A stretch of 5,156 bases of DNA, from the IMG/VR virus record IMGVR_UViG_2740892258_000011. One strand, given 5' to 3'. The translations under genes were made by a program, and so were the position numbers. The stretch comes from a virus (lineage: Duplodnaviria; Heunggongvirae; Uroviricota; Caudoviricetes). Below are positions 3,635 through 5,156 of the stretch, piece after piece. The notes under the pieces are model-generated. The model had not been told where the DNA came from and ran no database searches. It saw only the letters and a list, made by a program, of their open reading frames with translations. The first letter of the stretch is position 1, and each line of letters begins with the position of its first letter.

Positions 3635-4452
3635 AACTGGAAGATTTACCGAAATACTACTCCCCAAAATCCCCTGGCCTGACCGATGCATCGGCCTCAA
3701 CGTCAAAAGATGCGCTGAGTATCACTGATGTGATGGCCGCGCAGGGCATGACACAGAATCGGGCTGAGATGGGGTTTTCTGCGTTCCTGGGGAAAATGGG
3801 CATCAGTATGAATGACAGGGCGCGGGCAACAGAATTACTGGCAGATTATGCACTCAGTCGGTGCGATCGTGTGGCGGCGTTGAGAAAACTTCCGGCAGAA
3901 ATAAAACCGGTAGTGATGCGCATTATGGCTTCGTATGCGTTTGAAGATTATGCCCGTAGCGCGGCGAGCAAAAAACAGTGCCCTTGCTGTCACGGAAAAA
4001 AATTTATTGAAAGCGAGGTTTTTACAAACAAGATCCAGTATCCGGATGGTAAGCCACCAGTGTGGGCAAAGTGCACAAAAGGCGTGTATCCGTCTTACTG
4101 GGAAGAATGGAAAAAAGTCAGGGAGGTGGTAAAAGTTGCCTGTCCGGAGTGTGGCGGAAAGGGTGAGGTTTCCACCGCCTGTAAGGATTGCCGTGGGCGT
4201 GGTGTCGCCATTCATCGTGAAGAGTCGGTAAAACGTGGTATGCCTGTTATCAGAGATTGCCAGCGTTGTGGTGGTCGTGGCTGTGAAAGGCTGCCATCAA
4301 CGGAGGCATTTAATGCCATATGCAAAGTGACGAGTGCTATCACGCTTGATACGTGGAAAAAATCAGTGAAACGCTTTTACGATACGTTGGTGGTTCGGTT
4401 TGACATTGAAGAGGCATGGGCGGAGCGGCAGTTAAAGAGGGTAACGCGATAG
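3631..4452 (+). CDS. Lambda-family late antiterminator Q with enlarged cysteine-rich region (273 aa)
   Basis: ATGA overlap with the rusA stop. N- and C-terminal blocks match lambda Q: YYSPKSP vs FHSPKSP, ITDVMAAQGM vs GTDVMAAMGM, YAFEDYARSAA vs FAYADYCRSAA, YDTLVV...RVTR vs YDALVV...AVTR. The central region carries four CxxCxGxG-like repeats where lambda Q has two. Confidence 0.8.
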   Translation: MKLEDLPKYYSPKSPGLTDASASTSKDALSITDVMAAQGMTQNRAEMGFSAFLGKMGISMNDRARATELLADYALSRCDRVAALRKLPAEIKPVVMRIMASYAFEDYARSAASKKQCPCCHGKKFIESEVFTNKIQYPDGKPPVWAKCTKGVYPSYWEEWKKVREVVKVACPECGGKGEVSTACKDCRGRGVAIHREESVKRGMPVIRDCQRCGGRGCERLPSTEAFNAICKVTSAITLDTWKKSVKRFYDTLVVRFDIEEAWAERQLKRVTR

Positions 4453-4454
4453 TG

Positions 4455-4500
4455 TTGTTGATTTTTCCCGAATCTGTGGTAAATTTGCTCTAACGATGGG
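4455..4500 (+). promoter_or_regulatory. PR'-like late promoter with qut-like element
   Basis: TTGATT (4458-4463), 16-bp spacer, extended -10 TGgTAAATT (4477-4485). Downstream GGTAAATTTGCTCTAACGATGGG closely matches the lambda PR'/qut sequence GGTAAATTTGACTCAACGATGGG as I recall it. Confidence 0.6.
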
Positions 4501-4534
4501 CGTTTTATGCCTGACGTTAGAAGATTTTTTACAC

Positions 4535-4556
4535 CCCGCCGCCTGGCGGGTTTTTT
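4535..4556 (+). terminator. Rho-independent terminator (tR'-like) about 45-60 nt downstream of the PR' start
   Basis: Stem CCCGCC (4535-4540), loop GCCT, stem GGCGGG (4545-4550), then TTTTTT (4551-4556). Confidence 0.7.
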
Positions 4557-4676
4557 ATGACTGAAATCGCGTCAGTACAGTAAACGCGCTGGTGGCGGTG
4601 AATACCTGTCTTTCAGCTTGCTGGCTTTTTCGACAAGAGTTATTGGTGTGTCACGTTAACCGGAAAAGGAAAAGAC

Positions 4677-4874
4677 ATGCTAAAACAGCAGGATATGACA
4701 GAAACCGCCAGAGTGGTGTTTAATGAATTAAGCGTTACCGACCCGGCGACAGTCGGGGAGATAGCGCAGAATACTTACCTTTCACGCGAACGCTGCCAGT
4801 TAATACTGACTCAGCTGGTTATGGCGGGTCTGGCAGACTATCAGTTCGGTTGTTACAGACGCCTTCCGCAGTGA
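4677..4874 (+). CDS. Small hypothetical protein (65 aa), possible winged-helix DNA-binding fold
   Basis: ATG at 4677 with AAGGA RBS 8-9 nt upstream. The segment VGEIAQNTYLSRERCQLILTQLVMAGLA looks like a recognition helix-turn-helix, loosely reminiscent of PapI/FaeA-type small regulators. No confident homolog recalled. Confidence 0.4.
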   Translation: MLKQQDMTETARVVFNELSVTDPATVGEIAQNTYLSRERCQLILTQLVMAGLADYQFGCYRRLPQ

Positions 4875-4885
4875 AGGCTTTTTTA
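4861..4885 (+). terminator. Rho-independent terminator overlapping the stop codon of the small ORF
   Basis: Stem GCCTTC (4861-4866), loop CGCAGT, stem GAAGGC (4873-4878), then TTTTTTAT. Confidence 0.6.
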
Positions 4886-4901
4886 TTTGTGGTAAATGGG
4901 C

Positions 4902-4932
4902 GGCTGGTGGGTGTTAGGGGCACCCACCAGCC
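4902..4932. repeat. Perfect 12-bp inverted repeat with 7-nt spacer (strong hairpin or palindromic protein-binding site)
   Basis: GGCTGGTGGGTG (4902-4913), ttagggg, CACCCACCAGCC (4921-4932); arms are exact reverse complements. No T-run follows, so not a canonical intrinsic terminator. Confidence 0.6.
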
Positions 4933-5024
4933 ATCTGCTCATGCGTCCGGATCACAAGCAAACCTCAGGCCCACTGCTTTGCGCAAAAGCAGAATGAGCC
5001 TATCAGAGACAGGCTTAATGATCC

Positions 5025-5156
5025 ATGCTTAATACTGTAAAAATATCCAGTTGTGAGTTAATCAACGCCGACTGCCTGGAATTTATCCGGTCGTTACCCG
5101 AAAATTCTGTTGACCTGATAGTCACGGACCCGCCGTACTTTAAAGTGAAGCCTGAG
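5025..5156 (+). CDS. DNA methyltransferase (N6-adenine/N4-cytosine class, DPPY motif), N-terminal 44 codons; truncated by window end
   Basis: MLNTVKISSCELINADCLEFIRSLPENSVDLIVTDPPYFKVKPE. The block SVDLIVTDPPY is the catalytic motif IV, closely resembling YhdJ/phage Dam-like enzymes (SVDLIFADPPY). Weak RBS. Confidence 0.7.
   Translation, partial: MLNTVKISSCELINADCLEFIRSLPENSVDLIVTDPPYFKVKPE

Follow-up and report, generated by a model that had tools for sequence, protein, structure and literature searches.

A Winged-Helix Gene, a Covarying RNA Leader, and an M.EcoGII-Type Methyltransferase Gene as a Putative Anti-Restriction Cassette in the Late Operon of Lambdoid Prophages

Results

Genes and Features at the Locus

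The window considered here is the whole stretch of 5,156 nucleotides (nt) of the Caudoviricetes record IMGVR_UViG_2740892258_000011, and the subject is its last part, from position 4,677 to 5,156. In this part a gene for a small protein of 65 amino acids (aa), a spacer, and the beginning of a gene for an adenine DNA methyltransferase (MTase) follow each other on the plus strand (Table 1). An original prediction, made from the letters of the window, had placed here a 65-aa open reading frame (ORF) with its own ribosome binding site (RBS) and a terminator-like hairpin, followed by a palindrome and an MTase with a DPPY motif, and all of these are present; the RBS is AAGGA at 4666-4670, 6 nt 5' of the ATG. 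The window is part of a lambdoid Escherichia coli prophage and the region forms the beginning of a Q-dependent late operon, which confirms the predicted placement in the late region, behind the Q gene and a terminator. Many chromosomes of extraintestinal pathogenic E. coli, among them UTI89, S88, and APEC O1, are 100% identical to the window over 4400-5156, and 2388 of 5426 complete E. coli genomes contain DNA like this part of the window. The same part is matched by 24 phage records, mostly phages that convert their hosts to production of Shiga toxin (Stx) 2, together with phiP27.

Table 1. Features of the window, in order of position; P1 to P5 are helices of the leader RNA
Feature	Position	Strand	Remarks
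Gene of Q-type late-gene antiterminator, 273 aa	3631..4452	+	Pfam PF03589 Antiterm, E = 2e-49; labelled 'antitermination protein' in UTI89
Candidate late promoter pR' (TTGATT, 16-nt spacer, TAAATT)	4458..4485	+	Read by eye; position and downstream CTAACGATGGGCGTTTTATGCCTGAC similar to annotated late promoter of N15/phiKO2
tR'-like intrinsic terminator, 6 G-C pairs and T run	4535..4558	+	Terminator scan; a terminator is annotated at the corresponding position of SfV
Chi (GCTGGTGG)	4588-4595	+	
Element in 5' untranslated region of small gene: CTTG/CAAG hairpin (4617-4620 / 4634-4637), then AGAGTTATTGGTGTGTCAC	4617..4655	+	Identity of alignment block 0.66, of surroundings 0.43
Gene of 65-aa winged-helix protein, ATG start	4677..4874	+	Same coordinates in RefSeq UTI89 (WP_000917749.1); PHROG 331
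Hairpin and T run over stop codon of small gene (weak terminator or RNA-stabilising hairpin)	4861..4884	+	Stem 4861-4878, then TTTTTT; terminator scan
Structured RNA leader of MTase gene, ~136 nt	4893..5029	+	Covariance model R1, 110 bits
P1	4896-4901 / 4969-4974		
P2 (the 'palindrome')	4902-4913 / 4921-4932		Perfect 12-bp arms
Chi (GCTGGTGG) in 5' arm of P2	4903..4910	+	
Chi (GCTGGTGG) in 3' arm of palindrome	4924-4931	-	
P3	4937-4942 / 4954-4959		
P4	4975-4980 / 4986-4991		
Possible P5	4997-5001 / 5011-5015		
Gene of beta-class N6-adenine MTase, M.EcoGII type, first 44 of 349 codons	5025..5156	+	PF01555; DPPY at 5127-5138, in ...VTDPPYF...; runs past window end

The end of the window is the only truncation of the MTase gene, which is intact in the source genome (L001:7626-8675, 349 aa) and thus not a pseudogene. 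Its product matches PF01555 over residues 29-340 (E = 4.3e-43) and has the motif order of the beta class, i.e., DPPY at residues 35-38 and FFMGSG near residue 310 (N6_N4_Mtase domain). When it is aligned over its full length with M.EcoGII, 331 of 350 aligned positions are identical (95%), with 100% identity for the 44 residues inside the window; the comparison sequence, read by machine from the SUPREM supplement, has a few reading errors. According to the report on M.EcoGII (PMC5778455), the enzyme methylates adenine in any context and is silent in the lysogen and harmful when expressed constitutively, and phages of enterobacteria, 1720a-02 among them, encode close homologues. Phage 1720a-02 is also among the best DNA matches to the window. 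Two family members that are 58-67% identical, PhiOS31_p25 and ARM81ld_p56, have relaxed or absent specificity, and the authors of that work include the phiP27 homologue (PMC7556043). By homology, the MTase of the window may be expected to methylate adenines without sequence specificity and to be silent in the lysogen. Its homologues are spread over 95 phage records, among them SfV, mEp460, cdtI, Stx2c phages, N15, phiKO2, PY54, VHML, and phiO18P.

When the sequence is extended past position 5156, the full 349-aa MTase is followed by transfer RNA (tRNA) and lysis genes. The annotated order in UTI89 is DUF968 protein, RusA, antitermination protein, hypothetical protein (198 bp), DNA methyltransferase (1050 bp), tRNA-Ile, tRNA-Arg, tRNA-Arg, holin, lysozyme, spanin, and terminase. 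In phiP27 the small gene and the MTase gene are followed by tRNAs and stx2e, and the same order is found in SfV and mEp460 and, with stx genes, in phiP27 and the Stx2 phages. No endonuclease gene was found near the MTase gene, neither in the 7 kb downstream in UTI89 nor in phiP27, SfV, mEp460, N15, phiKO2, and the other records examined. From this follows that the MTase is an orphan, encoded in the Q-dependent late operon, and the locus is very probably a late-expressed hypermethylase cassette rather than a restriction-modification (RM) system. Among the options that the original prediction had named for the MTase, an orphan anti-restriction enzyme is the one favored by the 95% identity to M.EcoGII and by the downstream gene order.

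The Small Gene Encodes a Minimal Winged Helix

The small ORF is a real gene under purifying selection. In an alignment of 23 loci from different species, the mean pairwise identities at codon positions 1, 2, and 3 are 0.75, 0.77, and 0.49, respectively, and the Nei-Gojobori dN/dS over 89 pairs is 0.089 in the median and at most 0.23, with synonymous sites saturated. The protein belongs to PHROG 331, a family annotated as of unknown function (E = 2.8e-37). In a set of 5.8 billion proteins it has 333 homologues at E <= 1e-3, counted as representatives of 90%-identity clusters, and at 50% identity the family has 61 representatives among 1.84 billion. The named sources are all Enterobacterales among the 120 homologues listed, and the gene occurs at 24 loci from different GTDB species, with Escherichia, Salmonella, Klebsiella, Citrobacter, Kluyvera, Buttiauxella, Enterobacter, Mixta, Mangrovibacter, and Scandinavium among the genera. 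The conservation on which the original prediction depended is thereby established.

In its AlphaFold2 model, calculated from a 20-sequence alignment with a predicted local distance difference test (pLDDT) score of 92.2, the protein has the canonical H1-b-H2-H3-wing topology, and DSSP assigns helices to residues 9-16, 26-33, and 37-49, a bridge to residue 24, and strands to residues 53-56 and 59-62. As modelled, the protein is a minimal stand-alone winged helix, so that the helix-turn-helix-like segment of the original prediction is now part of a complete fold with template modelling (TM) scores of about 0.8 to MarR/IclR domains. The Foldseek matches have TM scores of 0.75-0.83 to winged-helix domains, with E values no better than ~1e-3, and they are generic: OhrR/MarR, IclR, the N-terminal winged-helix domain of O-methyltransferases, MotA, and ArsR/TrmB-like as well as Z-alpha-like viral proteins. 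None of the matches from the fold searches, made against the PDB and the viral BFVD, suggests a particular function, the comparison of the sequence with the PDB gave a single chance match (E = 0.63), NCBIfam gave nothing meaningful, and PADLOC gave one match at chance level. The Pfam scores all fall below their gathering cut-offs, with 17.3 bits for TrmB (cut-off 25.6), 15.1 for DprA_WH (22.9), 14.3 for MarR_2 (27), and 12.9 for HTH_24 (21.9), and there is no Pfam match to the Xre-type family HTH_3. The label 'TrmB family transcriptional regulator', given by PGAP/RefSeq in some records, was rejected as over-annotation, since the PF01978 score is below its cut-off. Typical TrmB proteins have an additional C-terminal domain.

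Three residues of the recognition helix, L44, T45, and Q46, are invariant, and D6, M7, and T8 near the N terminus are nearly so, while the remainder diverges down to ~45% identity. Binding of nucleic acid by the protein is plausible, if not assured. The hairpin over the stop codon is kept by compensatory change across species (GCCTTC/GAAGGC, GCCTCC/GGGGGC, CTCCGC/GCGGAG, and GCTGCC/GGCAG); its T run is poor in several other species.

A Structured RNA Precedes the Methyltransferase Gene

The most constrained part of the cassette is neither of the two genes but the leader between them. In the 23-locus alignment the mean pairwise identity of the spacer is 0.80, with 0.97 for 4896-4916, which is above the values for codon positions 1 and 2 of the small ORF. 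The leader is recognisable 5' of the MTase gene also in N15, phiKO2, PY54, and in Hafnia, Serratia, Morganella, and Vibrio VHML phages, and in these more distant phages P2 and P4 have entirely different sequences with the pairing kept.

To bring in such diversity, 152 further loci were gathered in searches that started from the MTases of VHML and phiKO2, and 30 representatives with less than 85% identity were chosen. From the diverse set, RNAalifold alone already recovers UGGGC:GCCCA as the closing helix, together with the top of P2. Applied to an alignment of lambdoid loci only, it finds almost no covariation, because these sequences are too similar, and the N15-like and Vibrio loci are therefore needed. 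The covariance model R1 has four helices, 136 positions, and 30 pairs. Searched against both strands of 99 sources (~0.5 Mb), it has 74 matches, one per locus and always on the plus strand, and 72 of them lie directly 5' of the MTase gene or of a Com-like ORF followed by the MTase gene. The remaining two (L022 and L047) are remnants, in which the MTase has been replaced.

Among the 69 distinct sequences, the columns that R1 pairs hold standard base pairs in 86% of the cells, as compared to 28-40% when the partners are slid by one to three columns, and compensatory change is seen in 26 of the 30 pairs. The covariation score is 0.32, while it is 0.12 after shuffling and at most 0.10 after sliding, and the observed values of pairing and covariation were reached in none of 500 shuffles; as they were counted on an alignment fitted to the model, they are somewhat inflated. 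In P1, for example, AUGGGC:GCCCAU alternates with GUGGGC:GCCCAC, with UGAGC:GCUCA in L027 and with GAUAGC:GCUAUC in L267. The minimum free energy (MFE) of the single leader sequence is -76.2 kcal/mol (z = -4.85). Rfam 15 has no match at E <= 1 to the plus strand of 4893-5029, where the opposite strand has a chance match to P26 (E = 0.41), and none in six diverse leader loci. We regard the spacer as a functional structured RNA with good, if not the highest, confidence.

Two further features of the leader were considered and dropped. A leader peptide from the invariant ATG of AAATGGGCGG was rejected, as the ORFs that start there vary from 3 to 45 codons and their frames are not conserved. A pseudoknot between the loop of P3 (GGUCA) and the UGAUC just 5' of the ATG was not counted, since it shows one-sided changes only, in the enterobacterial group. 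The sequence GATC at 5020-5023, a Dam site that ends 1 nt before the ATG of the MTase gene, is invariant in the leaders of the lambdoid group and absent in the N15-like and several other leaders; it would be the 3' side of the pairing with GGUCA in the P3 loop.

Both arms of P2 contain a Chi site, and the window has three Chi sites in total, all within 344 bp (4588-4931), as compared to 0.13 expected for the whole window; none of 200 shuffles reaches three. The Chi-bearing 5' arm of P2 is invariant in 21 of 22 aligned species sequences of the lambdoid group, and wobble pairs and a bulge are seen in the 3' arm. A plus-strand Chi is oriented for a RecBCD enzyme that enters from the cos or late-gene side. 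Breakpoints of mosaic phages are found at or just after P2, in PhiR5_1 at ~4914 and in phiSTEC1575-Stx2k at ~4943. Chi was at first suspected to be the main cause of the invariance of the palindrome, and is now read as probably no more than a secondary constraint at the DNA level, superimposed on an RNA helix.

Linkage of Small Gene, Leader, and Methyltransferase

The predicted pairing of the small gene with an MTase is borne out. The MTase gene lies 3' of the small ORF in 22 of 24 species-level GTDB loci, with a spacer of 147-154 nt wherever the small ORF is intact, and in 75 of the 76 IMG/VR loci that have room downstream. The relation between the parts can be seen from 253 MTase loci with at least 450 nt upstream, the counts being redundant and not independent. 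Leader and winged-helix gene are both present at 178 of these loci, the leader is present without the winged-helix gene at 36, both are missing at 38, including the P2-like phiO18P, where the MTase gene is inside the lysis cassette, and a single locus, with a weak match, has the winged-helix gene without the leader. When the leaders are reduced to 28 non-redundant lineages, the tally is 14 with a winged helix, 5 with a zinc-ribbon ORF, and 9 with neither. The loci thus form nested sets, with the winged-helix gene within the leader set and the leader set within the MTase family. From this follows that the palindrome cannot primarily be an operator for the winged-helix protein; it is better explained as helix P2 of the covarying leader, the sequence of which is replaced with pairing kept in N15-like and Vibrio phages and which occurs also without the small protein.

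Distant homologues of the small protein are the 75-aa gp51 of N15 and phiKO2 (hhalign probability 86%, E = 4.8e-6). Their genes, too, are neighbours of the leader and the MTase gene, but come just before the annotated late promoter and terminator, which separate them from the MTase gene.

In Vibrio-type phages (L123-L131, L133, L137, L139, and L252; e.g., L123 1337-1462), an ORF of 36-48 aa with the zinc-ribbon pattern CxxC...CxxC is situated between leader and MTase gene, and these phages make up 13 of the 36 loci with leader but without winged-helix gene. Against Pfam Zn_ribbon_Com the ORFs score 16.3-16.6 bits, which is below the cut-off of 22.9.

The MTase gene has been exchanged in a few phages. 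In L047 (3335-4048) and in phiSTEC1575-Stx2k (L004 4482-5195), a 237-aa protein has taken the place of the MTase and of the leader's 3' two-thirds, while the small gene and P2 are kept. The replacement has an annotated helix-turn-helix domain and a C terminus that looks AraC-like by eye, and in phiSTEC1575-Stx2k it is encoded directly 5' of the tRNAs and stx2k. Behind the small gene, PhiR5_1 encodes another protein, of 662 aa.

Discussion

A Proposed Leader-Gated Anti-Restriction Cassette

We read the locus, with a probability of roughly 0.6, as an anti-restriction hypermethylation cassette with three conserved parts, i.e., the 65-aa winged helix, the ~136-nt leader, and the orphan M.EcoGII-type MTase, which would be expressed from the late operon and gated by the leader, with the winged helix as an accessory regulator. 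To see how such a cassette may work, consider a lysogen, in which transcripts from pR' would end at tR', so that the toxic MTase would remain silent. After induction, the Q-modified RNA polymerase would pass tR' and the hairpin at the end of the small gene, and the MTase would then be made late and methylate adenines of the progeny DNA in nearly any context. With its DNA methylated in this way, the phage would be protected from many restriction systems in the next host.

The leader most likely limits or gates translation of the MTase, since the MTase start, at the ATG at 5025, is without a Shine-Dalgarno sequence and located at the 3' edge of the folded leader. An independent sigma-70 promoter for the MTase inside the spacer was found neither by scan nor by eye. 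The winged-helix protein would be an accessory regulator of the cassette, in the role that Com of phage Mu has for mom; on this analogy, its regulating the MTase is a tentative proposal, to which we assign somewhat less than even odds. In the most far-reaching version of the proposal, which we consider rather unlikely, the leader would be an undescribed class of cis-regulatory RNA for hypermethylase genes of temperate phages, gating translation of a toxic enzyme. Its ligands would then be interchangeable small proteins, the winged helix in lambdoid and N15-like phages and the Com-like zinc ribbon in Vibrio-type phages. Alternatively, as M.EcoGII methylates not only DNA but also RNA, the leader would respond to the MTase itself, through N6-methyladenine feedback on its own mRNA.

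Several observations weigh against this scheme. The evidence that the winged-helix protein regulates anything consists of synteny and analogy, and the protein is acidic (pI 5.1, net charge ~-1.5), which is unusual for a binder of nucleic acid. Leader and MTase do without the winged-helix gene at 36 loci, corresponding to about half of the non-redundant leader lineages, and the small gene is found without this MTase in PhiR5_1 (L003), phiSTEC1575-Stx2k (L004), and L047. Beside an intact leader and MTase gene, the small gene has decayed in Mangrovibacter yixingensis, with a premature stop after 22 codons (L025 4001-4069), and in Buttiauxella ferragutiae, with an internal deletion and no start codon (L020 3995-4171). 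SfV orf47 and mEp460_052 are small-protein alleles that are ~50% identical and yet precede identical leaders, with MTases that are both ~82% identical to the query, which argues against tight co-evolution. No part of the cassette is strictly dependent on another. As regards the RNA, in addition to the inflation of the covariation values, the 5' strand UGGGC can pair either with the proximal GCUCA(U), which the MFE structure prefers, or with the distal GCCCA, so that the architecture given here is provisional. Finally, the candidate pR' scores 8 of 12, which is under the threshold of the promoter scanner.

Relation to Known Systems

The closest known relative of the MTase is M.EcoGII/M.EcoGI from a prophage of E. 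coli O104:H4 C227-11, which shares with it the length of 349 aa, the beta-class motif order (N-terminal DPPY and C-terminal FxGxG), the location on a prophage, and the lack of a partner endonuclease; the passages of its description that were consulted mention neither an upstream winged-helix gene nor a conserved leader (PMC5778455). An account of how expression of M.EcoGII-type enzymes is controlled was not found in the literature on the enzyme, as far as it was available. What is already known is the MTase and, in papers at the level of annotation (e.g., PMC9729726), the small gene as 'hypothetical'. In a literature search that did not cover subscription journals, no work devoted to the small protein or to the leader was found, and the gene pair was named only as annotation (PMC9729726). 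The sources that could be searched do not describe the conserved three-part cassette, its presence in N15-like phages, the alternation between winged helix and Com-like ORF, or, above all, the covarying leader RNA.

In phage Mu, translation of mom depends on Com, and in Mu-like prophages com is followed by the gene of a non-specific adenine MTase (hin1523, nma1821, hia5); Com acts on mRNA structure to control the toxic mom and probably also the com-linked non-specific MTases (PMC3299994). The likeness to the present cassette lies in a small regulator gene directly 5' of a toxic, late, and broad anti-restriction modification enzyme, with RNA structure at the 5' end of the gene of that enzyme implicated in translational control, and Com-like zinc-ribbon ORFs stand before M.EcoGII-family MTase genes in the Vibrio-type phages. 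The gene order is that of a Com-Mom arrangement, and the MTase start, without a Shine-Dalgarno sequence and at a strongly folded leader, may be occluded by RNA structure. In contrast to Com, which is a zinc finger, the small protein is a winged helix and has no Com zinc finger; the two genes are separated by a multi-helix leader of 150 nt, whereas they overlap in Mu; and the MTase belongs to another family than Hin1523 and Hia5. A nearer parallel is provided by gp51 and gene 52 of the linear plasmid-prophages N15 and phiKO2, with a homologue of the winged helix (so annotated for phiKO2 gp51), the leader (R1 scores of 67-92 bits), an MTase of the same family (56-60% identity), and lysis genes thereafter. 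They differ in that the winged-helix gene is in another transcription unit, 5' of the late promoter and terminator, and in that P2 is without Chi. Regulators of the MarR/ArsR/TrmB type have the same H1-b-H2-H3-wing topology (TM ~0.8), but the small protein, with its 65 aa, lacks their dimerisation helices and ligand domain, is acidic, and scores below the Pfam cut-offs.

Temperate phages, many Stx phages among them, have in the M.EcoGII-type enzymes a broad tool against restriction; in the Stx phages the cassette is located between Q and stx. The enzymes also serve widely as laboratory reagents. The cassette is present in ~44% of complete E. coli genomes, and its arrangement links it to the Com-Mom paradigm. 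If leader and small protein gate translation, they would constitute a new pair of regulatory RNA and protein and offer a handle on how phages escape restriction, and possibly also on everything that lies 3' in the late transcript, stx included.

Alternative Explanations

The original prediction had likened the arrangement to the controller (C) protein and MTase of an RM or other defence module that continues past the window. In such a module, the small helix-turn-helix protein would bind the palindrome and time the expression of endonuclease and MTase. Like C.PvuII, C.AhdI, and C.Esp1396I, the small protein is of a DNA-binding type, is encoded beside an MTase, and has a perfect 12-bp inverted repeat nearby, between the two genes; the PADLOC model 'MTase_II' also matches the MTase (E = 5e-166), a match that reflects MTase homology only. 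C proteins have the Xre-type (HTH_3) five-helix fold, and their C-boxes are upstream of their own gene, whereas here the fold is a winged helix, the repeat is 3' of the small gene, and the small gene itself is 5' of an MTase gene and not of an endonuclease gene. Moreover, the 7 kb downstream hold tRNAs, lysis genes, and terminase and no endonuclease gene, as in phiP27, SfV, mEp460, N15, and phiKO2, the enzyme family is by homology non-specific and therefore incompatible with a cognate site-specific endonuclease, and the palindrome changes in sequence with compensation and is present in phages without the small protein. We regard an RM module as hardly credible. The other proposed model, a PapI/Dam-like epigenetic switch with the winged-helix protein as a PapI-like cofactor that sets heritable, methylation-dependent ON and OFF states, fares scarcely better and is most improbable. 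It gains from PapI being a small winged-helix protein, too, and from the invariant GATC at the MTase start codon in the lambdoid group. Against it stand that Pfam PapI/FaeA has no match to the small protein at E <= 1, that there is a single and not a paired GATC, that the GATC is absent in N15-like and several other leaders, and that the cassette is part of a lytic late operon. In addition, the MTase family is non-specific rather than GATC-specific (PMC5778455; PMC7556043), and an enzyme that is non-specific and toxic is unsuited to maintain heritable patterns.

If the spacer and palindrome were instead elements of the DNA, i.e., a pair of Chi recombination hotspots or a protein operator, three Chi sites within 344 bp, the invariance of the Chi-bearing 5' arm in 21 of 22 sequences with a drifting 3' arm, and the breakpoints of PhiR5_1 and phiSTEC1575-Stx2k would all be accounted for. 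Outside the lambdoid group, however, P2 has other sequences without Chi and retains its pairing, and three further helices covary, so that this explanation is improbable. The main rival to a regulatory role of the winged helix is that its gene is an independent passenger of the late operon, a 'moron' that encodes a factor for host take-over or anti-defence. The adjacency would then reflect shared ancestry of the module, and regulation would be left to the leader, alone or together with the MTase. This is in line with the loci that have leader and MTase without the small gene (36) or the small gene without this MTase (L003, L004, and L047), with small-protein alleles that are shuffled relative to the MTase, with the acidity of the protein, and with mosaic breakpoints at or just after P2, at Chi sites. 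On the other side, the winged-helix gene occurs together with leader and MTase at 178 of 179 loci, the adjacency has been kept across genera with saturated synonymous divergence and, in N15-like phages, in spite of a promoter and a terminator between the two genes, and L44, T45, and Q46 are invariant although the remainder of the protein diverges. We judge the passenger to be somewhat unlikely, yet clearly the most serious of these alternatives.

Late-Operon Elements Upstream of the Cassette

The assignment of pR' to the candidate promoter just behind the antiterminator gene is inferred from the features given in Table 1. In phages with three unrelated Q genes, megablast homology to the window starts only at ~4532-4536, as expected if tR' closes a pR'/qut segment particular to each Q and a late module shared by these phages follows. 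The region transcribed from pR' to tR', 4458-4558 (CTAACGATGGGCGTTTTATGCCTGAC...), is similar to the region behind the annotated late promoter of N15 and phiKO2. Its equivalents in PY54 (L114 1287-1362) and Serratia OS31 (L116 1215-1276) have weak, sub-threshold Rfam matches to isrK, an Hfq-binding small RNA (sRNA) of prophages (E = 0.03-0.8), and the pR'-tR' region might be a terminated late-promoter sRNA of the StxS/IsrK kind.

The element in the 5' untranslated region of the small gene is found in all loci of the lambdoid type, Hafnia and Morganella included. Its 4-bp stem covaries (CTTG:CAAG, CTGG:CCAG, and CTGT:ACAG) and is followed by the nearly invariant AGAGTTAY.TGTGT, and it has no match to a sigma-70 promoter.

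Near-identical copies of the enterobacterial prophage module occur in L005 and L014, the GTDB titles of which name a metagenome-assembled genome of Bacillus sp. and Chryseobacterium sp., respectively, so that the assemblies carry the labels of Firmicutes or Bacteroidota; most likely this is due to contamination or mis-binning and not to a true host range. The antiterminator of the window is long and carries, N-terminal to its Antiterm domain, four CxxCxGxG motifs that resemble the zinc finger of DnaJ (PF00684, 28 bits, under the cut-off).

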